IMG/VR virus record: IMGVR_UViG_3300047400_000324 | Coordinates: 1-64,000 of that record | Length of the DNA stretch: 64,000 nt | Source: a virus | Lineage: Duplodnaviria; Caudoviricetes | Strand: one strand, 5' to 3' | In this document: one piece after another, positions 16,187 to 58,356 of the stretch | How the letters are laid out: each line of letters begins with the position of its first letter | Position numbering within the stretch: the stretch's first letter is position 1 | Made by a program: the position numbers and the translations under genes | The notes under the pieces: model-generated | What the model saw: the letters and a program-made list of their open reading frames with translations, nothing else | Databases searched by the model: none | What the model was told of the DNA's origin: nothing

Positions 16187-16279
16187 TGGTGGGAGTGGTA
16201 AGAGTCGAACTTACAATGTTTACCATATAGGACGCGATTTACAGTCGCGGGATGCACACGCCATAGCATCAACACTCCC
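16187..16279 (-). tRNA. tRNA-Tyr(GTA)
   Basis: Cloverleaf GGGAGTG/CACTCCC-A-CCA, loop CTGTAAA, long variable arm, TTCGA T-loop. Confidence 0.92.
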
Positions 16280-39859: not shown

Positions 39860-41068
39860 TTATTTTTCGTCGAGTTTTATATTACCAGAGCGACCATTTC
39901 CTTTGGGTAATGCAACTCTCATTGGGGGTCCATCGTGATCTAATTCATCGACATGTTTTGCAGAAGCATTTAATTTGTTATCACCCGATTTAACAAGATA
40001 ACTTGCTGTGCCTTCAGGACCTTCAAATTTTCCTTCACCTGTAGTAGCTTCTCTTCTCACAAAACCATTCAATTTTGGATGATCTTCATGAAGTTTATCT
40101 AATATAGATTGTGCCTTTTTCCTATGTTCTTCTTGTTCTTCTTTAGAAGCATTTTTCATATTATTCAAGTGCTTCGACACTGTTTTCATTCTATTCATTA
40201 TATCATTATGAATTTCTTGTCTTTGTTTTTCATTATGATTACGATAATCGGGGTGTGAAGATAACATTTGATTTGTGGCATGATGAACGACGGCAGAAGA
40301 TTCTTCTGGACCAGCAGACATAAGTTGTGATCCACCACCCTTTTTCATTGAAATCCTAACGCCTTCTGTTCCATCGCCATTTGGATTTCTTAAAACTAAA
40401 TCAGCTTTCGATGTTGCCGAAGAAGCTCCATATTTTCCCCACAATGAAGATAATTTAGATTTAGATGCACCTGCAACACTGGCTCTATAACCTTTTTTAA
40501 CAGCATCTTTCAATTTTGGATGATTACGCAACGCAATAATACTACCTACAGCTGTATGCAATTCCTTATGATAGGAATCTTTATGGTCTTCGGTTTTTTT
40601 ACCACCTGAAAATCCATCATTTTCTGCATTGGAAAAATGTAAAGGATGATTTTTATCATTTTTTGCTTTTTCTATTTCTTGATGCAATTTTTCTTCTGTA
40701 TCTATACCATGATCTATCGCATAATTCCATATTTTTGTATGTGCATGTTCATCATTGTATGTTGGTGATTTTCCTTTTGGTTTTTTCAATTTACTCATAG
40801 GTATGGTTATTTTATTTCCGTCATCTTTACTAACAACAACATGATGAATACCTTTATCATCTATTTGATGACTATGCAATGTTACTCTATCTCCAGGATT
40901 GAATTCACCAATTTTACTTGATATTTCATGAGTACCATCGCCAGTATGTCTTGAACCTCCTGGCAAATATGGTTTAATATATTTTTCATGATCGTAATTA
41001 GCTCTATTTCCACTGGATGTCAAATTAGCTTCGGATATAAGAAATTTCAATTGTTTAGCTGTGATCAT
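39860..41068 (-). CDS. Head-associated protein with PD-(D/E)xK-like motif
   Basis: SKADL...ISMKKGGGSQLMS; start MITAKQLKFLISE. Confidence 0.6.
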   Translation of the reverse strand: MITAKQLKFLISEANLTSSGNRANYDHEKYIKPYLPGGSRHTGDGTHEISSKIGEFNPGDRVTLHSHQIDDKGIHHVVVSKDDGNKITIPMSKLKKPKGKSPTYNDEHAHTKIWNYAIDHGIDTEEKLHQEIEKAKNDKNHPLHFSNAENDGFSGGKKTEDHKDSYHKELHTAVGSIIALRNHPKLKDAVKKGYRASVAGASKSKLSSLWGKYGASSATSKADLVLRNPNGDGTEGVRISMKKGGGSQLMSAGPEESSAVVHHATNQMLSSHPDYRNHNEKQRQEIHNDIMNRMKTVSKHLNNMKNASKEEQEEHRKKAQSILDKLHEDHPKLNGFVRREATTGEGKFEGPEGTASYLVKSGDNKLNASAKHVDELDHDGPPMRVALPKGNGRSGNIKLDEK

Positions 41069-41072
41069 GGAT

Positions 41073-41699
41073 TCAATGCCTTGTTGTTACTACTATTGTT
41101 TTTCTGGTATATGGATTATGTTTAACTAGATGCGAATACAATTTCACATCGGGATGTTCCAATTTCAATTTAGCAAATTCTTTATGGTTACCTTCATCGT
41201 CATCATAAAGATGCACCTCTTTCAATTTATCTCGTTTAATTAAATCCGATAAAACTCTTCTTTTTCGATCTCCAGTAGATGTGCCTTCTACATTTCCAGC
41301 CCTTCTCAAATGTGTTTTATCTATATCTATACCATATCTTTTTAAATGATGTTTGACTGCCAGTTTATCGTCTAAATCCGATCTAGCTGTAAGTATTTCT
41401 GTTCTATTTCCTCTTTGGCGAAGTTTATTCAATCTATTTATCATCGAACGAATTGGAGTTCCGGATTTACGCAATACTTTTGCAGATTTAAATTCACCAA
41501 AATCATATTTGTGACCTAAAGGCAATTTATGTTTATTGAATTCCTGTGTGGTTAAACTTCTAACTCTATTACCGTTGCTATCTATAACGTGAATTTTAAT
41601 TTTATGAGGATCGTGGTGTATCAATGTATCATCTAAATCGAAGAAAAAAGCTTTATTTCGTATACCCTCAGTTATAAATTCTTTGAAAGAAATCATCAA
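41073..41699 (-). CDS. HAD-superfamily phosphatase
   Basis: FFDLDDTL, ILTARS, K, YDDD; start MMISFKEFITE. Confidence 0.85.
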   Translation of the reverse strand: MMISFKEFITEGIRNKAFFFDLDDTLIHHDPHKIKIHVIDSNGNRVRSLTTQEFNKHKLPLGHKYDFGEFKSAKVLRKSGTPIRSMINRLNKLRQRGNRTEILTARSDLDDKLAVKHHLKRYGIDIDKTHLRRAGNVEGTSTGDRKRRVLSDLIKRDKLKEVHLYDDDEGNHKEFAKLKLEHPDVKLYSHLVKHNPYTRKTIVVTTRH

Positions 41700-41714
41700 A
41701 ATTTCCTTTCTTTT

Positions 41715-41788
41715 TATAAATAGTTAATACTAGTCGCGGACTGCCATCCCACTAGTTCTATTGCTAGAGAAAAAAAAGGAGCAACAGC
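41715..41788 (+). promoter_or_regulatory. Late promoter and structured leader of HNH gene 1
   Basis: TATAAATA 41715-41722; ACTAGT-CGC-GGA-CTGCCA-TCC-C-ACTAGT-TCTA. Confidence 0.8.
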
Positions 41789-42367
41789 ATGATTGATATT
41801 TATAATTCATCAGATTACAGAAAAATTTTCATGAAAACATATGGTTCTATACCTAAAGACAAGGACGGTAGATCATATGAAATTCATCATATAGATGGAA
41901 ATAATTCAAATAATTCTCCAGAAAATTTGAAAGCTGTTTCTATAGAAGAACATTATTATATTCATTTGTCTCAAGGTGATTATGGCGCTTGTTTATTAAT
42001 ATCAAGTAGAATGACTACAACACCAGAAGAAAAGAGCAATTTGGCTAGATCTCATGTCATTAAACAACTTGAAGAAAATAGACATCCATGGAAAACAGAC
42101 TCATATCGTGAATCTCAAAGACTAAGAGCTTTATCAGAAAATAATCCATTTCTTGGAGGTGAAATTCAAAGAAAAAGTAGTAGAAAACGTGTAAGGGAAG
42201 GCACACATCATCTTTTAGGCGATAAAACAAATTTTAATATGATTAAAGAAGGTAAGCATCCATCTCAAAAAATATGGACATGCGAACATTGTGATATTAT
42301 CGGTAAAGGAACAACTAATTATATTAGATGGCATGGTAATAATTGCAAAAAATTAATAAAAAAATAA
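41789..42367 (+). mobile_element. Free-standing HNH homing endonuclease 1 (antisense to neighbours)
   Basis: EIHHIDGN.SNN..ENL..V...EH..IH; C-terminal CxxC...H...C. Confidence 0.88.
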
Positions 42368-42392
42368 GTGTCTGGAGTTTCCTCCAGACACT
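42358..42392 (-). terminator. Intrinsic terminator
   Basis: 11-bp perfect stem AGTGTCTGGAG/CTCCAGACACT, GAAA loop on minus strand, followed by U-run. Confidence 0.85.
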
Positions 42393-42497
42393 CGATAAAT
42401 TTGCAGCAATGTCGAGCGGAACCCCACCGTTATTCTCAACTATTCCTCAGATTGATCTGCTTTGCCACTGCGTCCTAGAAACGCTAATGCTGCTTGA
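42360..42497 (-). ncRNA. Candidate ~135-nt late structured RNA
   Basis: Bounded by TATAAATA (42510-42503) and terminator; no minus-strand ORF; several stems. Confidence 0.45.
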
Positions 42498-42521
42498 GAT
42501 TCTATTTATATTTTTAAGATT

Positions 42522-42725
42522 TTAGAAATAAGAATTTTTAGGTGGATTTAGAAAAAAACTTGGAGTCCATCCATCAAATCCAGATCCATTATTCAACGAT
42601 GTCTTTAAAATTTGTGCATCCCATTCATCCTCGCATTGCATTATATTTTGTTCAGTACGACTTTCAAAAATTTCATAGATATCGTTATCGTCCACATTTC
42701 GTTTAATCATATAATTCATTTTCAT
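42522..42725 (-). CDS. Hypothetical protein
   Basis: Co-oriented small ORF; GSGFDGWTP.FF. Confidence 0.6.
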   Translation of the reverse strand: MKMNYMIKRNVDDNDIYEIFESRTEQNIMQCEDEWDAQILKTSLNNGSGFDGWTPSFFLNPPKNSYF

Positions 42726-42731
42726 TTTCTC

Positions 42732-43934
42732 CTATGCAAATCCTTCAAATTTCTTAGAAAATTTAGACCTATTTTGAAAAAATTCATTATCTCGTTGACC
42801 ATATTCTGTTTTATCCATAATTGGAATGTCGTCCTGTATATTCTCCTGTTCTGTTTGATCTACATCGTATAATTTCATTTTCGATCTATCGATACCGATA
42901 ACAAATCGGCGATTTTTAGATAAATCGCTGTATCTATTTTTAAGTTGTTTTACCATAATTTGATTGAACGATTCTAACTGTTCATTGCTAATAAGAGCAA
43001 ACATCAAATCGGCAGTCGCAGGTAATCCGAAACTTTCCGAAACATCTGTCAAAACGACATCGGACGACGCATACCCACTTCTTGTTGTTTGTGTAGCTGT
43101 AACTATAGGAAGATCGTGTTCAACAGCTAAACCACGAAATTCTTCCGCAATAGCCTTTACATAAGTATAACTATTTACCGACGCGGTATATTTTACTCGG
43201 CTAGAAGCACAAATATTGAGATAATCGATATAAATGATATCTGGAATAAAATTCTTTTTCAATTTCAATTCATTCAATAAATGTCTGAAATTTGCTGCAC
43301 CAGCAGTAGACGTTGGATATTCTTTGATAATAAGCTTACCAACAGTTTTCTTTTTTACCCTATCGATTTTTTTCATGAAAGAATCTTTTGGAACGGTTTC
43401 AATTTCATCCAAAGACATATCCAATAGATTTGCATCGATACGTTCTGCAATTCTTTCTTCAGCCATTTCCATAGTAATATAAAGAACATTTTTACCATCA
43501 AGCAAATTGCTAGCGGCAAAATGACACATCGCAAGACTTTTCCCAACACCGGTATTATGGCTTGAAATTCCATTAGTATAATATCTATGATTTTCATGTT
43601 CTACATTAATATCTACGATAGGAATTATATTGCCGGTATAACGAACAGCTCCCCTTTCAAATCCATTTTTTGTTAAAAAATTTGCATATTCAATTTTAGA
43701 TAATTGTAGCGCGCTTATCCATCCATTATCAGTTTCAAATAAATGTTCTGCATTGCATAATACAGATTCACTATTATTTTCCAACTGAAGGCTGTATTCT
43801 TCATAAATTCCCTTATCGATAAAGAAATTTACTCCTACCCATCCATCGGGAGAATCTACTTCAATTTCATAATTTTCTTCTAACATGGTTTTTATTTTAC
43901 TGATAGGGATTTCAATTTCAGTCCAAATTTTCAT
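42732..43934 (-). CDS. gp41: gp41 helicase C-extein preceded by split-intein C-part
   Basis: SD TAGGAGA before ATG 43934; HN|TGVGKS, YITMEM, DYLN, ATQTTR, QLKNRY. Confidence 0.93.
   Translation of the reverse strand: MKIWTEIEIPISKIKTMLEENYEIEVDSPDGWVGVNFFIDKGIYEEYSLQLENNSESVLCNAEHLFETDNGWISALQLSKIEYANFLTKNGFERGAVRYTGNIIPIVDINVEHENHRYYTNGISSHNTGVGKSLAMCHFAASNLLDGKNVLYITMEMAEERIAERIDANLLDMSLDEIETVPKDSFMKKIDRVKKKTVGKLIIKEYPTSTAGAANFRHLLNELKLKKNFIPDIIYIDYLNICASSRVKYTASVNSYTYVKAIAEEFRGLAVEHDLPIVTATQTTRSGYASSDVVLTDVSESFGLPATADLMFALISNEQLESFNQIMVKQLKNRYSDLSKNRRFVIGIDRSKMKLYDVDQTEQENIQDDIPIMDKTEYGQRDNEFFQNRSKFSKKFEGFA
43554..43934 (-). mobile_element. Split intein C-part, 127 aa
   Basis: Block B-like CNAEH, block F IVDINV, terminal YYTNGISSHN with +1 Thr. 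Confidence 0.92.
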
Positions 43935-43948
43935 TAAAAAATTTCTCC

Positions 43949-44021
43949 TATAAATAATATTGTAGATCGCGATGCTACCAACATCCATCTACTCTAACGT
44001 CTGAAAAGGAGACATCAGCAA
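43949..44021 (+). promoter_or_regulatory. Late promoter and structured leader of HNH gene 2
   Basis: TATAAATA 43949-43956; GTAGAT-CGC-GATG-CTACCAA-CATC-C-ATCTAC-TCTA. Confidence 0.8.
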
Positions 44022-44657
44022 ATGTATTTACGCATTTATAATAATCTATGTTCATCAAATTGTCAACGAAAAGAATTGTGGTTGCCAGGTTCTGGTATTC
44101 ATAGACATCATATATTACCAAAACATATGGGCGGATTGGATGAAGATAATAATTATACATATCTATATCCACGCGAACATCAAATAGCACATTTTTTATT
44201 ATGGAAAATATATAAAAATCCAAATGATCTTAGATCAATGCATATGCTTGGTGCAAAATTAACTATTTCACAGAGAAAAATTGTAGGCATTTGGTGTAGA
44301 GACAACAAAATAGGAATTCATGGTTCTTCCTCTGAAAATAGAAAACAGTGGGCTTTAAAAGGATTAGAAACACAAAAAGAATCAAATAATAAAAAAACAT
44401 TTTATTATTGGTCTACAGAAACTGGCAGAAAAGAACGATGTGCTTTGGGGGGAAAATCTGGTTCTAAAACACAAATAAAAAATAAAATTGGTATATTCGA
44501 TTCTAATAAAAGAACTGAATATGCTAAACTTGGCGGACAATCATTGAAGGGAATGATTTGCGTAACCAATGGTATTCATAGAACTAGAATTAAACCTCAT
44601 TTATTAGATGAATATGTGTCAAATGGTTATCGTTTAGGATTTACTCTTTTTTCCTAA
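44022..44657 (+). mobile_element. Free-standing HNH homing endonuclease 2, antisense between the two helicase-intein halves
   Basis: HRHHILPKHMGG.D..NN...L..REH..AH.LLWKIY. Confidence 0.9.
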
Positions 44658-45276
44658 ATCTTATTCTAACTTTTGTATCTGGATGAACACATCCTGCCAA
44701 TATAACATTCAATGTCTTTCTAGAAAGCCCGCCTTTAGTGATAAGATTCATGTATTCCAGATTGAAAGGCATTTTTGCTTCTTTACGATGATAAAAATCG
44801 TAACGAGTTTCAGCGTCTTCCAAAAAACTATGACCAATATTAGAATCGAAACTTACAGCCAGAGCATCGGATAAAATCTGTGGTATTGCGCCTTTATCAT
44901 ATTTGCTATTTTTATTATCCAAAATTTGAATAGAATCCATAATAGCATTATAAACGGCTTTTTCTTGACAAAATTTTTCTGTTTTTTCTACAAGCCAATC
45001 TACTTCTGTTTTAGGATCATAAGAGAGTTGATCTATGATATCTTTGCACATATCATGAATTGGTTGACTTATACCAGTTTTTGAATTCATTTCAACTTCA
45101 ATCGCTTCCTTTGATGGAAAGCGATTGAATTTGTTTACATAATTTTCAATCAATTCAAAAATAATTTTGTCGGAAATATCATGAAAATATTCCGATTTTA
45201 GAAAAGGTATTACTTTGCGTGCATAATCGTCACGATTTATAATATTACCAAAAATTACTTGTTCAAAAGACGCCAT
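44641..45276 (-). CDS. gp41: gp41 helicase N-extein ending in split-intein N-part
   Basis: RKVIPFLK.EYF, LS.ALAVSFD..IGH.F, LNVILAG|CVHPDTKVRIRFRKKE-stop. Confidence 0.93.
   Translation of the reverse strand: MASFEQVIFGNIINRDDYARKVIPFLKSEYFHDISDKIIFELIENYVNKFNRFPSKEAIEVEMNSKTGISQPIHDMCKDIIDQLSYDPKTEVDWLVEKTEKFCQEKAVYNAIMDSIQILDNKNSKYDKGAIPQILSDALAVSFDSNIGHSFLEDAETRYDFYHRKEAKMPFNLEYMNLITKGGLSRKTLNVILAGCVHPDTKVRIRFRKKE
44644..44691 (-). mobile_element. Split intein N-part, 16 aa
   Basis: Block A CVHPDTKV starts right after AG of the Walker A loop. Confidence 0.88.
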
Positions 45277-54452: not shown

Positions 54453-54529
54453 TGGTGGAAGCGGTCCGATTCGAACGGACGATAAATCGGTTATGAGCCG
54501 ACGGCCTTAAACCACTTGGCGACGCTTCC
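54453..54529 (-). tRNA. tRNA with CAT anticodon (elongator Met or Ile2)
   Basis: GGAAGCG/CGCTTCC-A-CCA; loop CTCATAA; paired 1:72 argues against initiator. Confidence 0.9.
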
Positions 54530-54585
54530 ATTTATATTATGTCGATAATGTAACACGAAAATTTATTCATGTCAACTATTTTATT

Positions 54586-54660
54586 TGGTGCGAGATATAG
54601 GGTTTGAACCTATGACATTTTCGGTGTAAACGAAACGCTCTACCACTGAGCTAATCTCGC
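54586..54660 (-). tRNA. tRNA-Val(TAC)
   Basis: GCGAGAT/ATCTCGC-A-CCA; loop TTTACAC. Confidence 0.93.
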
Positions 54661-54670
54661 ATAAATTTAA

Positions 54671-54747
54671 TGGTCCGTGCGGCTGGATTTGAACCAGCGA
54701 CCCCATGGTCCCAAACCATGTATTCTACCAGACTGAACTACGCGCGG
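54671..54747 (-). tRNA. tRNA-Pro(TGG)
   Basis: Cloverleaf; loop TTTGGGA; CCA. Confidence 0.93.
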
Positions 54748-54753
54748 TAATTA

Positions 54754-54841
54754 TGGCGGAGAGACTGGGATTTGAACCCAGGGAACATTTCTGTTCGGAA
54801 GTTTTCAAGACTTCTAGTTTCAGCCACTCACTCACCTCTCC
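54754..54841 (-). tRNA. tRNA-Ser(TGA)
   Basis: Long variable arm; loop CTTGAAA; G-CCA. Confidence 0.93.
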
Positions 54842-54867
54842 TGAAAACAAAATGATTAATGTAGATA

Positions 54868-54943
54868 TGGCGCACCGTCAAGGAATCGAACCCTGCTATT
54901 CGGTTTTGGAGACCGATACATCGCCACTAAATGCTTACGGTAC
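54868..54943 (-). tRNA. tRNA-Trp(CCA)
   Basis: Loop CTCCAAA; G-CCA. Confidence 0.9.
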
Positions 54944-54945
54944 TA

Positions 54946-55034
54946 CGGAAATGAGAGGATTCGAACCTCCGGATCATATTTCTACGATCAACGGTTTAGC
55001 AAACCGCCACTTTAAACCACTCAGTCACATTTCC
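54946..55034 (-). tRNA. tRNA-Ser(GCT), CCA not encoded
   Basis: GGAAATG/CATTTCC-G; loop TTGCTAA; long variable arm. Confidence 0.9.
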
Positions 55035-55048
55035 AGTTTATTCGAATA

Positions 55049-55582
55049 TCAGAACCGATAGTTTACACCAGCACTAAACACGTGATCTTGCTTGATAGCA
55101 GAATTGCTACGATTCATTGGACGAATTTCACGATATCGGGCATCCAATTCAACAGATTCCGAAACGGCAATTCTAGTACCTGCGCCAACATCCCAAATAG
55201 CCCTTTCAGAATTTGTTGTGCGAATGGTCGAAAGCCCGTTGAATGAATAACCAGCGCCAGCCAAAACATAAGGTGTTACGACTGTATTGGGAATACGATA
55301 TTGTACAATTCCGTTTACCATGGCACGATAACCTTCACGATCAGACCGCCACACCTTGTCAATATCGGCCTCGGCTCGCAAATGCTTTCCAATTTGAAAT
55401 CCAGCATCTACACCAAAAACACGTTCATTGAAATTGCCGGTCGATGACCCAAGAGAACCACCAACATAAGCACCGGTTCGATCTAGATTTACAGAGGTTG
55501 GAAATGCTGTATCTGCTGCCATAGAGGCTGCTTGCAATCCAGCAATCATCATAACAGCCGCACTAATTGTCTTAAAATTCAT
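55049..55582 (-). CDS. Small outer-membrane beta-barrel protein (Omp25/RopB-like)
   Basis: Signal peptide, GAYVGGSLG, PYVLAGAGY, terminal AGVNYRF. Confidence 0.85.
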   Translation of the reverse strand: MNFKTISAAVMMIAGLQAASMAADTAFPTSVNLDRTGAYVGGSLGSSTGNFNERVFGVDAGFQIGKHLRAEADIDKVWRSDREGYRAMVNGIVQYRIPNTVVTPYVLAGAGYSFNGLSTIRTTNSERAIWDVGAGTRIAVSESVELDARYREIRPMNRSNSAIKQDHVFSAGVNYRF

Positions 55583-55687
55583 TTTTTACATCCTTTACAA
55601 TTATCAAAAAATAAGCATATTGGAAATGTGGTACAATAATTACCCTATGCTTTAAACCACGAATAGGAACCAATATGTTTATATGAG

Positions 55688-55695
55688 TATTTATA
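55688..55695 (-). promoter_or_regulatory. Late promoter upstream of OMP gene
   Basis: TATAAATA about 105 nt upstream of ATG 55582. Confidence 0.65.
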
Positions 55696-55727
55696 CACTA
55701 TAATGAATGGTTTGTCAACCACAAAAT

Positions 55728-56150
55728 TTATACCAATTCGATTTTATCTCTAACTACGTGCAATCTAACTTGTTTCGCATCGGCAATACGTTCTCCTCCA
55801 AAACGAAGATAATCTCGCCCTCCATCGACAAAAATGCCTTTATGAGTTCTATAGTCATGTCTATATCTACTATAGATAACTTCATCGTCTATCTGTATTC
55901 CAGAAAAATCTTCGATAGCACTTATTGCATCGGTGATCATAGAATCACCTTGATCAGATATATAAAATCCAAACCAATTCGAACCTTGGGGATGAGCCTG
56001 TTCGGTATAAAAAACAGCAACTGGAAAATTTACCCATCCACCATATTTGTTTTTCAAACAACTTTCAAAAACATATGTTGCATTCATTTTGTTTTCTATA
56101 ATTTTAATGCTTGCATCTTTGAGAAAAGACGATTCATTCAAAATTTTCAT
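55728..56150 (-). CDS. Conserved hypothetical protein
   Basis: YSRYRHDY......VDGGRDYLR. Confidence 0.7.
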   Translation of the reverse strand: MKILNESSFLKDASIKIIENKMNATYVFESCLKNKYGGWVNFPVAVFYTEQAHPQGSNWFGFYISDQGDSMITDAISAIEDFSGIQIDDEVIYSRYRHDYRTHKGIFVDGGRDYLRFGGERIADAKQVRLHVVRDKIELV

Positions 56151-56153
56151 AGT

Positions 56154-57149
56154 TTAAAATATCTCTCTAAACATAATTTCAAATGCCGCAGCTAAAAATC
56201 CAGCAGCAGGAATAGTCAAAATCCATGCAATAAGAATTTCTTGAGCCTTTTTCCATTTGACTTTTGGTTCCGATTGACTCGCACCAACTCCAAGAATGGA
56301 ACCTGTTATAGTATGAGTAGTACTGACAGGTATACCCAATCCACTGGCGATAAACAACATCATTCCTCCACCAGTTTCTGCCATAAATCCGCCTCTGGAA
56401 TCCAACCTAGTAAGTTTGAATCCTAATGTTTGCACAATTCTCCAACCACCGGCAAGAGTCCCAAGTCCCATTGCAATAAAACTACACCATACAGCCCACA
56501 TTGGAATATTGCTAGCAGTAGATACAAAACCACTTACAATCAATATCAACCAAATAATACCAGCTGTCTTTTGTGCATCGTTCGATCCATGCCCTAAACT
56601 ATAAAATGCAGCACTGCTTATTTGAGCCCAACGAAAAAAACGCAATTGTTTTTCTGTAGTTTCAGGCAATAAATTTCTTATAATAGTATTGATACCAGCT
56701 CCAAGAATAAATCCGATACAAGGACTAGCAACAATAAAAATAAGAGTTTTTCCCAATCCTTCCCAAAGAAGATTATTTGCACCACCAATAGCAACAACAG
56801 ATCCAATAATACCACCTATCAGTGCATGACTGCTACTTGTAGGTAAACCGAAATACCATGTTATCATATTCCAAGAAATAGCACCACAAAGTGCTCCAGC
56901 TATAACATAAAGATCGATGGCGCTTGGAACTACAATACCTTTTCCAATTGTAGCGGCAACTGAAAGATTCATAATAAACATGGAAATGAAATTGCATATA
57001 GCTGCCATAACTACAGCTTGAGTTGCCGTCAAAGTTCCAGTTGCAACAACTGTTGCAATACTGTTTGCGGCATCGTGAAACCCATTTGTAAAATCGAAAA
57101 TAAGAGCAAGCAATATCAAAGATATCACAATCAATGTTAAATTTGTCAT
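56154..57149 (-). CDS. pitA: Inorganic phosphate transporter (PiT family)
   Basis: NGFHDAANSIAT, GLPTSSSHALIGG, HGSNDAQK, PVSTTH. Confidence 0.95.
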   Translation of the reverse strand: MTNLTLIVISLILLALIFDFTNGFHDAANSIATVVATGTLTATQAVVMAAICNFISMFIMNLSVAATIGKGIVVPSAIDLYVIAGALCGAISWNMITWYFGLPTSSSHALIGGIIGSVVAIGGANNLLWEGLGKTLIFIVASPCIGFILGAGINTIIRNLLPETTEKQLRFFRWAQISSAAFYSLGHGSNDAQKTAGIIWLILIVSGFVSTASNIPMWAVWCSFIAMGLGTLAGGWRIVQTLGFKLTRLDSRGGFMAETGGGMMLFIASGLGIPVSTTHTITGSILGVGASQSEPKVKWKKAQEILIAWILTIPAAGFLAAAFEIMFREIF

Positions 57150-57177
57150 TTTTTCATCCAATCATAACGTCATTTTT

Positions 57178-57254
57178 TGGAGCTGATTGCCGGTAACGCT
57201 CCGGTCCTCTCCAGTGTGGAAAACTGGGGGCCCATCTATCTAGACCAAATCAGC
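57178..57254 (-). tRNA. tRNA-Gly(TCC) with non-canonical T-loop AGCGTTA
   Basis: GCTGATT/AATCAGC-T-CCA; CCAGT-TTTCCAC-ACTGG. Confidence 0.85.
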
Positions 57255-57693
57255 GAATAATATACTCATAGTTAATAGTTTTTTCATTTTCTTTTAAAAG
57301 AACAGCACCATTCGATAAATGGAATCGGCGCGCCATTTCCGTTTTTGGACTCAATGTGACAAATCTTTTAATATGCGGTTTATTTTTTTGAATGTATTTT
57401 ACTATATCGAAAATAATTTGTCTACCATATCCTTTTTCATACGACCAGACCGTATAAAAAACAGCAATTCGCGGTGGATCGGCAAATTCTGGAAATGCAT
57501 TCAATTCTTCTACAATTGTTGGAATTTGATCTAGATAAGCTACACAACAAATTGCCAACGGTGCACAAGAATTATCTATTTGAAAAATTTGTTTGCCAAA
57601 ACTTGTTCTGAATTCATAATCCAATTCAGGTCTTACAGGATCGTCTTTGATATAATCTTTGTAATTATTTGGCATTTCACGAAAATGAGACAT
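57250..57693 (-). CDS. Conserved hypothetical protein, possibly GNAT-like fold
   Basis: FYTVWSY.KG.GR..I, RFVTLSP.T.MA.RFH..NGA. Confidence 0.7.
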   Translation of the reverse strand: MSHFREMPNNYKDYIKDDPVRPELDYEFRTSFGKQIFQIDNSCAPLAICCVAYLDQIPTIVEELNAFPEFADPPRIAVFYTVWSYEKGYGRQIIFDIVKYIQKNKPHIKRFVTLSPKTEMARRFHLSNGAVLLKENEKTINYEYIIR

Positions 57694-57695
57694 TT

Positions 57696-57887
57696 TTATT
57701 TCTTTTTTCTGCCATTACCCTTTTTATATCCAGTGCCAAAAGGAGAATAACCCGTAACAACCCAAGAGTTTTTTTGTTTTTTACCGGCTTGATTTGCAAC
57801 TTTTGTAAAAGAAGCAGTACTGCCATCTTTATATCTTTTAGTTTTTTGTAAGCTTGATTTAGAAACAGTTTTTGCCATAATATTCAT
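57696..57887 (-). CDS. Small basic protein
   Basis: Lys-rich ORF overlapping-packed with neighbours. Confidence 0.55.
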   Translation of the reverse strand: MNIMAKTVSKSSLQKTKRYKDGSTASFTKVANQAGKKQKNSWVVTGYSPFGTGYKKGNGRKKK

Positions 57888-57921
57888 TTCTTTTATTGAT
57901 TAATTTATATAATATATATAA

Positions 57922-57997
57922 TGGTGCCCCTTGTCCGACTCGAACGAACCACCTGCTGATTACAAATCAGCTGCTCTACCAGATGAGCTAAAGGGGC
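57922..57997 (-). tRNA. tRNA-Thr(TGT)
   Basis: GCCCCTT/AAGGGGC-A-CCA; loop TTTGTAA. Confidence 0.93.
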
Positions 57998-58000
57998 ATA

Positions 58001-58030
58001 AAGACCAGCTGATATATATCAGCTGGTCTT
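58001..58030. repeat. Perfect 30-bp palindrome
   Basis: AAGACCAGCTGATAT-ATATCAGCTGGTCTT. Confidence 0.95.
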
Positions 58031-58035
58031 GAAAA

Positions 58036-58128
58036 TGGTAGGGAATGGCGGTAACGATCCGCCCCGTTGCCCTCATCTAGGACTCTCCCGGGTTTATAAG
58101 GCCCAGCCGCACACCTGTGCTATCCCCC
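58036..58128 (-). tRNA. Atypical tRNA-like gene, anticodon TAT, long variable arm
   Basis: GGGGGAT/ATTCCCT-A-CCA; D arm GCAC-AGGT-GTGC; loop CTTATAA; extra arm GTCCT/AGGGC; T arm GGCGG-ATCGTTA-CCGCC. Confidence 0.7.
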
Positions 58129-58191
58129 ATAATATGGGTGAGAAGTTAACCATGACTTCTCGCGCGTTTATTGAGGAACGACCCTTTAATT

Positions 58192-58266
58192 TGGCTTGCC
58201 AGGTAGGACTCGAACCTACAACCATTCGGTTAACAGCCGAATGCTCTACCATTGAGCTACTGACAA
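58192..58266 (-). tRNA. tRNA-Asn(GTT)
   Basis: TTGTCAG/CTGGCAA-G-CCA; loop CTGTTAA. Confidence 0.93.
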
Positions 58267-58279
58267 TCAAATTCTTTTC

Positions 58280-58356
58280 TGGAGAACCGGGTGAGATTTG
58301 AACTCACATAAAACAGGATTTGCAATCCTGCGCCTAAGCCATTCGACCACCGGTCC
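58280..58356 (-). tRNA. tRNA-Cys(GCA)
   Basis: GGACCGG/CCGGTTC-T-CCA; loop TTGCAAA. Confidence 0.93.

Follow-up and report, generated by a model that had tools for sequence, protein, structure and literature searches.

Two leaders of one build before unrelated endonuclease genes

The main mobile elements in T4-like phages are homing endonucleases. To our knowledge, the way in which they stay harmless is known only for a few T-even genes. In the DNA analyzed here (64,000 nucleotides of a virus of the Caudoviricetes, positions 1 to 64,000 of IMG/VR record IMGVR_UViG_3300047400_000324; in the following the window), two free-standing homing endonuclease genes, HNH1 and HNH2, are preceded by structured leaders of the same build. 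This raises the question of what the shared leader does, and on which strand it is folded. The features of the region are as follows.

41073..41696, - strand: gene of a HAD phosphatase / polynucleotide-kinase-like protein; its Shine-Dalgarno sequence and ATG lie immediately behind hairpin 1 of copy 1
41715..41722, + strand: late-promoter box of HNH1, TATAAATA; its complement UAUUUAUA is the U-rich tail after hairpin 1 on the - strand
41729..41756, - strand: hairpin 1 of copy 1 (ACUAGU, G, GGA, loop UGGCAG, UCC, GCG, ACUAGU)
41757..41788, - strand: hairpin 2 of copy 1; CUG (of GCUG) and UAG (of UAGA) close an 8-bp stem
41789..42367, + strand: HNH1, HNH_3 / I-HmuI-like free-standing homing endonuclease gene, 192 aa
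41797..41804, - strand: candidate promoter of antisense RNA 1, an exact TATAAATA within HNH1 codons 3-6
42366..42393, - strand: terminator, perfect 12-bp stem and AUUUUUUUAU, just beyond the HNH1 stop codon
42732..43934, - strand: helicase C piece, starting with a 127-aa C-terminal intein part (...SSHN/TGVGKS)
43949..43956, + strand: late-promoter box of HNH2, TATAAATA; its complement is the U-rich tail after hairpin 1 on the - strand
43962..43992, - strand: hairpin 1 of copy 2 (GUAGAU, G, GAUG, loop UUGGUAG, CAUC, GCG, AUCUAC)
43993..44019, - strand: hairpin 2 of copy 2 (CUGAUGUCU, loop CCUUUUC, AGACGUUAG); 9 bp including two G.U pairs
44022..44657, + strand: HNH2, MobE-like free-standing homing endonuclease gene, 211 aa
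44025..44031, - strand: candidate promoter of antisense RNA 2, GTAAATA, in HNH2 codons 2-4 and 5 nt from GCUG
44034-44041: second near-box TATAAATG, beside the GTAAATA of HNH2
44038..44066, - strand: sigma-70-like promoter, TTGACA-17-TATTAT (11 of 12; a consensus match only), inside the HNH2 5' end
44641..45276, - strand: helicase N piece, ending with a 16-aa N-terminal intein part CVHPDTKVRIRFRKKE

Each leader (41715-41791 in copy 1, 43949-44021 in copy 2) contains a late-promoter box, hairpin 1, TCTA, hairpin 2 at the Shine-Dalgarno sequence, CAGC and ATG. On the gene strand, hairpin 1 is built from 6 bp, CGC, 3-4 bp, the loop CT(G/A)CCA(A), a single C and the 6 bp. In copy 1 these parts are ACTAGT (41729-41734), CGC, GGA, CTGCCA (41741-41746), TCC, C and ACTAGT (41751-41756), followed by TCTA (41757-41760), AAGGAG, CAGC (41785-41788) and ATG (41789). 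In copy 2 they are GTAGAT (43962-43967), CGC, GATG, CTACCAA (43975-43981), CATC, C and ATCTAC (43987-43992), followed by TCTA (43993-43996), AAGGAG, CAGC (44016-44019) and ATG (44022). The core pattern occurs at only these two sites in the 75.7-kb record. On the - strand, the loop of hairpin 2 includes in both copies the complement of the Shine-Dalgarno sequence, which in copy 1 is that of HNH1.

The leader strings quoted in the first-pass annotation were all found in the window, and its claim that the two endonuclease genes are unrelated agrees with the lack of BLASTP similarity between their proteins. HNH2 belongs to PHROG 655, shows 29% identity to T4 mobE, and is placed antisense between two pieces of a helicase gene, of which the N piece covers positions 161-361 and the C piece positions 362-602 of the PHROG 19 profile. 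The pieces are split at ...ILAG/CVHPDTKVRIRFRKKE* and M...SSHN/TGVGKS, and the 3' ends of the N piece and HNH2 overlap by 17 nt. The C-terminal intein part matches VidaL (PDB 6vgv, E 6e-10) and the gp41-1 intein. By its sequence, the locus conforms to the fractured-gene pattern of a split intein with a free-standing endonuclease gene between the pieces, here in antisense orientation. The Shine-Dalgarno sequence and ATG of the C piece lie on the - strand immediately behind hairpin 1 of copy 2. That late transcription in this phage is of the T4 type is an assumption, based on the T4-like genes present and on the surplus of TATAAATA (20 found versus 12.3 expected).

A portable cassette on viral contigs

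A promoter-free scan of viral contigs yielded 80 loci, and both viral-contig scans combined gave about 60 distinct copies of the leader, spread over dozens of related contigs. In each of these copies NTAAATA precedes the stem by 3-6 nt, and TCTA, CAGC, ATG and a hairpin at the Shine-Dalgarno sequence are present as well. The spacing between the gene-strand box and the base of hairpin 1 has a mode of 5 nt and stays within 3-6 nt in nearly all copies; both hairpins therefore lie entirely inside the late transcript, as the first-pass annotation had stated in setting the structure apart from the T4 switch, in which the promoter is inside the hairpin. The downstream genes encode endonucleases of at least five domain types, Vsr-like/DUF559 nucleases among them, so the further instances which that annotation had called for exist, and the leader is common to mobile endonucleases beyond the two in the window.

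Its statement that the stems differ in sequence and still pair was likewise confirmed: nine of the ten hairpin 1 pairs were changed on both sides, and none of 500 shuffles reached the observed values. The second hairpin at the Shine-Dalgarno sequence, described there as weak, is real and covaries. All of the stems vary, yet hardly any variation is seen in the bulges (G, GCG), the loop and UAGA/GCUG. Against model R1, hairpin 1 scored 42.8 bits (E 4e-8) in copy 1 and 62.8 bits (E 9e-14) in copy 2. With a length of about 90 bp, the shared leader is a portable cassette whose copies form one family.

A cmscan of positions 41000-45000 against Rfam 15 gave no match at either leader with E values up to 10; such a match would, according to the first-pass annotation, have removed novelty. 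The region had no megablast match among cultured phages, and blastn of a consensus-like cassette against cultured phages gave just chance matches of 26-30 nt within coding regions. A search with model R1, run without a positive control, detected no copy in Acidovorax phage ACP17, Stenotrophomonas phage DLP6, phage C48C1, Xanthomonas phage BUDD and Citrobacter phage Ci1.

Opposite-strand selection of the fold

On the gene strand, 22 A.C/C.A mismatches and not a single G.U pair occur across 44 distinct sequences of hairpin 1. Read on the opposite strand, all 22 mismatches become G.U pairs, and 99.8% of 456 cells pair, versus about 93% on the gene strand. The opposite strand is the more stable one in 61 of 61 copies (mean -11.3 versus -7.3 kcal/mol).

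Hairpin 2 behaves in a similar way once its full length is considered. On the opposite strand, RNAalifold closes it by the invariant CUG/UAG (C-G, U-A and G.U), which extends the stem to 8-9 bp via the invariant GCUG and UAGA. This extended pairing is present in 92.0% of cells on the opposite strand versus 73.9% on the gene strand, and hairpin 2 reaches a mean of only about -1.9 kcal/mol on the mRNA strand. For the short core of 4-5 bp, 40 of 56 copies favor the mRNA strand slightly. The complete two-hairpin structure pairs in 96.5% of cells on the opposite strand, and 14 of its 19 pairs covary.

These observations show that the fold of the cassette is selected on the strand opposite the gene. 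The proposal of a cis-regulatory RNA in the first-pass annotation thus held in one part, a conserved, covarying RNA-type structure that accompanies unrelated mobile endonucleases, and was not supported in its placement in the mRNA leader. Nothing points to the ligand sensor or the guide or scaffold RNA that was also considered there, and these ideas were pure speculation.

A facing promoter box and a U-rich tail

Of 42 non-redundant endonuclease starts, 33 have TAAATA on the opposite strand within their first 45 nt, compared with 11.8 +/- 2.9 (maximum 21) expected from 1000 trials of synonymous resampling and with a frequency of 1% in other 45-nt windows of the same genes. The box is encoded via different amino acids and reading frames (IY, YL, IF, LF). 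Its distance to GCUG, the base of hairpin 2, has a mode of 5 nt and remains unchanged when the ATG moves (CAGC-ATGAA-TATTTA versus CAGC-AAATG-TATTTA). An opposite-strand promoter box is hence kept beyond coding need and at fixed spacing. About a fifth to a third of the copies are without an exact opposite-strand TAAATA. GTAAATA, the form present at HNH2, and CTAAATA also serve as gene-strand box in other copies of the cassette.

Behind hairpin 1, whose stem of 11 bp is interrupted, the first 10 nt of the opposite strand contain 6.2 U on average, with a spacer of 1-3 nt before the tail. Termination may be weak because the tail begins 1-3 nt past an interrupted stem. The tails in the window contain less U, and a simple terminator scan did not call hairpin 1 there.

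Neither the opposite-strand box nor the strand-specific G.U pairing depends on the orientation of the neighboring gene. With co-oriented and divergent neighbors, the opposite-strand box occurs in 14 of 21 versus 19 of 25 copies and strand-specific G.U pairs in 12 of 21 versus 13 of 25. Since both are as frequent in one orientation as in the other, the fold belongs to the cassette and not to the neighbor.

A putative antisense RNA

The late-promoter box that faces the gene from within its own start, together with the U-rich tail, suggests a cis-antisense RNA. In the reading to which we give somewhat better than even chances, the cassette makes an RNA of about 65-77 nt across the whole 5' UTR of the nuclease mRNA, which restrains the nuclease. 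On the gene strand, transcription of the endonuclease mRNA would begin at the foot of hairpin 1, driven by the T4-type late-promoter box. The second late-promoter box, on the opposite strand in the first endonuclease codons, would start the antisense RNA at the base of hairpin 2. This RNA would consist of an 8-9 bp stem with the Shine-Dalgarno complement in its loop, one A, hairpin 1 (11 bp, two bulged G, loop UUGGUAG or UGGCAG) and the U-rich tail, whose commonest form, ACUUUUAUUUAU, is the complement of the gene-strand promoter box. With this layout it would therefore be the exact complement of the whole 5' UTR and the start codon of the endonuclease mRNA. The predicted antisense RNA 1 of the window would have its 5' end near 41791 and its 3' end near 41715 (about 72-77 nt), and antisense RNA 2 would extend from near 44019 to near 43949.

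The RNA would most likely lower nuclease synthesis through pairing with the ribosome binding site, and polymerase collision may contribute, the two starts being only about 90 bp apart. Transcription of the opposite strand, a stop behind hairpin 1 and repression of the nuclease by the RNA are what we infer from this arrangement. The regulatory logic is not obvious because both promoters are late. The terminator beyond the HNH1 stop codon would end - strand transcripts before they enter HNH1 in antisense.

Besides the copies that lack an exact box, the possibly weak termination and the lateness of both promoters, further points run counter to the antisense model. In the window, upstream promoters could no longer serve the helicase C piece and the phosphatase gene if the stop behind hairpin 1 were strong. 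Furthermore, simple pairing leaves the near-invariant bulges (G, GCG), the loop and UAGA/GCUG unexplained. A speculative extension, to which we give little credence, is that the bulged G, the loop and the UAGA/GCUG clamp form a dock for a dedicated phage or host RNA-binding protein, and that this governor module was repeatedly captured by unrelated homing endonucleases, maybe acting in trans between co-infecting phages.

Several other explanations of single elements were considered and dropped. A small - strand ORF starting in the CATG palindrome is absent in copy 2, and the length of hairpin 2 varies. The loop was read as a sigma-70 -35 element (TTGGTA) or a sigma-54 element (TGGCAG), but variants misfit, and the stems covary, which a duplex promoter does not need. 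Inspection did not show the defining positions of a kink-turn, a tRNA D-arm or an anticodon-arm mimic. Pseudoknot pairing of GCUG with the 3' part of the loop of hairpin 1 is compatible with the two common loops and fails in most divergent copies. Diversification of stems to keep copies orthogonal within a genome is at odds with three L090 copies that have an identical outer stem. Read-through from flanking operons as the general source of the opposite-strand RNA was dropped, since orientation is mixed and makes no difference.

Alternative explanations

The fold might instead act in the endonuclease mRNA, where the hairpins would set stability or translation, perhaps via a protein binding the bulge and loop. 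The gene-strand box indeed puts +1 at the base of hairpin 1, about 93% of the hairpin 1 cells still pair on that strand, the hairpin 2 core with part of the Shine-Dalgarno sequence is slightly better there (40 of 56), and leader hairpins are known at T-even endonuclease genes (PMC2988022). A selected mRNA fold should, however, show G.U at least as often as A.C, and hairpin 1 has 22 A.C and no G.U on this strand; the share of paired cells in the extended hairpin 2 is 74%, below the 92% of the other strand, and the conserved opposite-strand box in the first codons is left unexplained. We therefore consider a function in the mRNA unlikely. Similarly improbable as a general role is service to the flanking phage genes, for which the opposite-strand fold would be a leader, a processing site or a partial terminator that insulates or restores expression after insertion of the endonuclease gene. 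Endonuclease ORFs of T4 are known to contain promoters of downstream genes (PMC2988022), and in the window each cassette has a - strand gene immediately behind it, the phosphatase gene in copy 1 and the helicase C piece in copy 2, with the sigma-70-like promoter in the HNH2 start pointing through the cassette toward the C piece and a - strand terminator behind HNH1. Among the copies, however, neighbor orientation is mixed, and box and G.U pairs are equally frequent when the upstream neighbor is co-oriented and no gene follows on that strand. Where the neighbor is divergent, service to flanking genes may be an additional use of the fold and not its general function.

The strand bias by itself cannot tell RNA from DNA because DNA hairpins tolerate G.T wobble. 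A protein acting on DNA, for instance during replication, recombination or homing, could recognize hairpins in single-stranded DNA of the opposite strand, and the conserved bulges and loop suggest recognition by a protein. The promoter box, the fixed distance from box to stem and the U-rich tail on this strand are, on the other hand, features of RNA synthesis, and no gene for an HUH nuclease, a recombinase or the like is present beside the cassette in the window. We also know of no homing step that requires a hairpin on the donor side. A DNA structure is accordingly considered very improbable.

If the antisense RNA exists as proposed, many environmental phages share an exchangeable module of antisense RNA and promoter for at least five unrelated nuclease domain types, a solution different from the T4 hairpin switch. 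The hairpins described in 2009 beside the split inteins gp41-1, NrdJ-1 and IMPDH-1 would then need to be read anew. These three inteins are now standard tools of protein engineering.

Comparison with known systems

The proposed arrangement resembles that of RNA-OUT of IS10/Tn10. There, a promoter inside the 5' end of the mobile element's gene faces the promoter of this gene, and a short, stably folded RNA complementary to the ribosome binding site and start codon limits the synthesis of a potentially harmful DNA-cutting enzyme. The cassette, known from sequence alone, likewise has a candidate convergent antisense promoter box within the 5' end of the endonuclease gene, and its predicted folded antisense RNA spans from the CAGC next to the ATG to +1 of the mRNA, with 96.5% of cells paired. 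It differs from IS10 in its unrelated sequence, its phage late promoter, its two hairpins with invariant bulges and the sharing of the module by unrelated genes.

Literature searches for antisense RNA or convergent promoters at homing endonuclease genes led only to CfrI of the T4-like cyanophage S-PM2; experiments detected this antisense RNA on the strand opposite such a gene (Millard et al. 2010, as cited in PMC2984593). As described there, CfrI has about 225 nt and links the endonuclease gene to psbA, and is thus not a portable 5' cassette; it is likened here by description, with no claim of kinship in sequence or structure.

Hairpins at late promoters that sequester the ribosome binding site are known in T-even phages and Aeh1 from I-TevI, I-TevII, I-TevIII, segB and Aeh1 mobE (PMC2988022). 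The cassette is similar to these in the TATAAATA-type late promoter and the RNA hairpin directly before a homing endonuclease gene, and the presumed purpose, nuclease synthesis that is low or late, is the same. In the T-even switch, the promoter is located inside the hairpin of the mRNA strand and late transcripts escape the fold, whereas both hairpins of the cassette are downstream of the box. A stable sequestration of the Shine-Dalgarno sequence on the mRNA strand, as in I-TevI, was not found, hairpin 2 having about -1.9 kcal/mol and pairing in 74% versus 92% of cells. Unlike in the T-even phages, the fold is selected on the opposite strand, a second, facing box lies in the gene start, and one cassette serves many nuclease families.

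Further counterparts are the loci of environmental T4-like phages in Dassa et al. 2009 (PMC2677866), in which fractured gp41, NrdA, NrdJ, IMPDH and DnaE genes carry split inteins and are accompanied by a free-standing endonuclease gene. That study reported hairpins in 15 of 16 5' UTRs, 10 of them with TATAAATA, along with two conserved motifs that pair in the stem. The mRNA strand was folded and the hairpins were taken as an Aeh1-like mask of the ribosome binding site; strand bias, an antisense promoter and antisense RNA are not considered there (PMC2677866). As in these loci, HNH2 sits in a fractured gp41-type helicase gene, although the endonuclease genes described there often overlap the downstream gene part co-directionally and HNH2 is antisense (PMC2677866). 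As far as the motif is described in that article, it is likely the same as that of the cassette.

The endonuclease genes and the fractured helicase

The window belongs to a 75.7 kb linear IMG/VR virus record (33% G+C; completeness 46%, CheckV estimate). It contains T4-type genes for UvsX and a DnaB/gp41-like helicase, and the closest cultured relatives are Acidovorax phage ACP17 and Stenotrophomonas phage DLP6 (UvsX, 55-60% identity). HNH1 and HNH2, the sole endonuclease genes found in the record, are + strand genes amid - strand genes, and similarity between the two was not detectable. The following features are relevant here:

41789-42367, +, HNH1, HNH_3/I-HmuI-like
42732-43934, -, helicase C piece, beginning with a 127 aa C-terminal intein part
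44022-44657, +, HNH2, MobE-like (29% identity to T4 mobE)
44038-44066, -, sigma-70-like promoter TTGACA-17-TATTAT (near-consensus, 11/12) inside the first 45 nt of HNH2
44641-45276, -, helicase N piece, ending in ...ILAG, followed by a 16 aa N-terminal intein part CVHPDTKVRIRFRKKE

The gp41/DnaB-like helicase (42732-45276, - strand) is split by HNH2, which lies antisense in the gap. The 127-residue intein part has VidaL as its best solved relative (6vgv, E 6e-10), followed by the gp41-1 intein, and ends in SSHN right before the Walker A motif TGVGKS. In the terms of Dassa et al. 2009, the helicase is a fractured gene whose atypically split intein occupies a site in the Walker A loop.

Beside HNH1, a late-promoter box TATAAATA (42510-42503) on the - strand is followed by a fold of about 100 nt and a perfect 12-bp terminator (42366-42510). 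The predicted structure is a closed, cloverleaf-like arrangement of three hairpins (-47.6 kcal/mol, z -4.05, none of 200 shuffles as good). The region showed no ORF, tRNA call, Rfam match or homologue among the loci gathered here and is regarded as a candidate late small RNA adjoining the HNH1 3' end. Ten - strand tRNA genes were additionally detected by ARAGORN (16187-16279 and 54453-58356; Tyr, Met, Val, Pro, two Ser, Trp, Thr, Asn, Cys).

The leader cassette as a family

The leader shared by both HNH genes (41715-41791 and 43949-44021) was found at each exactly as the first-pass annotation had described it, and its core pattern occurs at these two sites only in the whole record. Scans of IMG/VR with a pattern including the promoter yielded 71 loci, about 45 of them with a complete cassette, and 80 loci were obtained without the promoter; pooled, these represent 61 distinct contexts and 44 distinct hairpin 1 sequences. 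Every copy from the promoter-free pattern carries NTAAATA 3-6 nt before the stem and, after it, TCTA, a small hairpin with the Shine-Dalgarno sequence at its end, then CAGC and a start codon. The covariance-model search proposed earlier, performed with a model of hairpin 1, recovered 82 sites in 100 sources, including divergent copies (loops CTACAA, CGCCAA, TTGCCG, CCCCCA, CTGGTAA and TAGCAG) in which the T-CGC-G / C-C-A internal loop is retained. Genes headed by the cassette are of NUMOD3-bearing, I-HmuI-like, HNH_3, HNH, DUF559/Vsr-like and DUF7487 types.

Two divergent copies on viral contigs (L025:10058-10098 and L002:1233-1272; loops CTGGTAA and TAGCAG) have ACTA in place of TCTA and no recognisable NTAAATA box upstream, yet GIY-YIG-like genes follow them; such copies may be of greater age or driven in another way. 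A third contig locus (L089:2834-2874 and the adjoining sequence on the endonuclease side) holds an HNH1-like endonuclease gene with an internal deletion: its cassette is retained, but hairpin 1 and the beginning of hairpin 2 run straight into the final ~21 codons (CEHCGVKTTGGNYKKWHGDNC).

The strand of the fold

The covarying structure said to travel with unrelated endonuclease genes was borne out, but its assignment to the mRNA was not. On the gene strand, the hairpin 1 stems contain 22 A.C/C.A pairs, one A.A and no G.U pair. When one transition hits a Watson-Crick pair, G.U and A.C are about equally likely to result, and a fold selected on the mRNA should therefore show at least as many G.U as A.C pairs. 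On the opposite strand the same 22 pairs are all G.U; standard pairs occupy 99.8% of 456 cells, and both sides have changed at 9 of 10 pairs, values reached by none of 500 shuffles. With slid partners the paired cells fall to 25-58%. RNAfold preferred the opposite strand in all 61 copies.

According to RNAalifold, the single bulged G of the opposite strand pairs with the middle C of GCG, leaving two one-base G bulges, and GCUG, through its invariant CUG, pairs with UAG in UAGA (C-G, U-A, G.U). The latter pairing closes hairpin 2 as a stem of 8-9 bp with the Shine-Dalgarno complement as its loop, which assigns a structural role to the conserved TCTA and CAGC. Hairpin 2 is paired in 92.0% of cells on the opposite strand versus 73.9% on the gene strand, and the full two-hairpin structure in 96.5%, with covariation at 14 of 19 pairs. 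It is highly probable that the fold is selected on the strand opposite the gene.

Facing promoter boxes and the predicted antisense RNAs

Of 42 non-redundant endonuclease genes, 33 carry the complement of TAAATA in their first 45 nt, against an expectation of 11.8 +/- 2.9 (maximum 21 in 1000 trials) from resampling of synonymous codons; in other 45-nt windows of these genes its frequency is 1%. Since the box is encoded through varied residues and reading frames (N-I-Y, Y-L-Q, I-F-I, L-F-I), it looks like a constraint on nucleotides and not on protein. It mostly lies 4-7 nt from GCUG (mode 5), a spacing that survives a shift of the ATG (CAGC-ATGAA-TATTTA vs CAGC-AAATG-TATTTA); the gene-strand box lies 5 nt (mode) from the base of hairpin 1. 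T4 late transcripts start ~6 nt below TATAAATA, so the transcript from either box would start at a hairpin base. Behind hairpin 1, the opposite strand most commonly reads ACTTTTATTTAT (mean 6.2 U in 10 nt), the 3' half of which is the complement of the gene-strand box; by its sequence, this U-rich stretch is terminator-like. Two RNAs are predicted in the window:

~41791 to ~41715, -, predicted RNA 1; candidate start box an exact TATAAATA at 41797-41804
~44019 to ~43949, -, predicted RNA 2; candidate start box GTAAATA at 44025-44031

Each stretch folds into two hairpins (-18.0 and -20.5 kcal/mol, z-scores -1.5 and -2.7). Judged from sequence, transcription of the opposite strand from the embedded box is likely. 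Such a cis-antisense RNA would extend over the complete 5' UTR of the late endonuclease mRNA, its start codon included, and less nuclease would be made. This is the reading adopted here, as somewhat more probable than not; for the single step of the RNA acting as a repressor, a tentative proposal can be made.

An element acting in the mRNA leader is unlikely in view of the A.C pairs without any G.U in gene-strand hairpin 1. Equally unlikely is an element serving the flanking genes, even if the window offers arguments for it: both cassettes lie directly upstream, on the - strand, of - strand genes (the helicase C piece and a HAD phosphatase-like gene), a strong - strand terminator is present just behind HNH1, and the sigma-70-like promoter in the start of HNH2 is directed through the cassette to the helicase C piece. 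That promoter may serve early expression of the host gene downstream of the endonuclease gene in which it lies; promoters of this kind occur inside some T4 seg and mob genes. In the window, the leader of the next phage gene thus also includes the opposite-strand fold. In the family as a whole, however, neighbours are oriented either way, and co-oriented and divergent cases do not differ in the frequency of the opposite-strand box or of the strand-specific G.U pairs, so that a leader role cannot be general. A signal in single-stranded DNA is very improbable. The proposed readings, including antisense repression, do not account for the near-invariance of the bulges, loop and UAGA/GCUG amid stems that vary at every position, a pattern that points to a tertiary contact or a partner protein.

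Comparison with known systems

Rfam gave no match to the leaders, and an antisense cassette of this kind at homing endonuclease genes was not found described in the literature search. The antisense pair RNA-OUT/RNA-IN of IS10 serves as a working analogy. The distinction from the T4 switch drawn in the first-pass annotation holds: in the T-even switch the late promoter sits inside a hairpin of the mRNA strand (PMC2988022), whereas the cassette has neither a promoter within the hairpin nor a stable mRNA-strand fold over the Shine-Dalgarno sequence. CfrI of S-PM2 (PMC2984593), the sole antisense RNA opposite a phage endonuclease gene that the literature search turned up, is a transcript of a different kind from the predicted cassette RNA. 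Dassa et al. describe hairpins with TATAAATA and two mutually pairing motifs in front of free-standing endonuclease genes at fractured gp41, NrdA, NrdJ, IMPDH and DnaE loci, and interpret the hairpins as masks of the ribosome-binding site (PMC2677866). Judged by this description, they are very probably the same element viewed from the mRNA strand.
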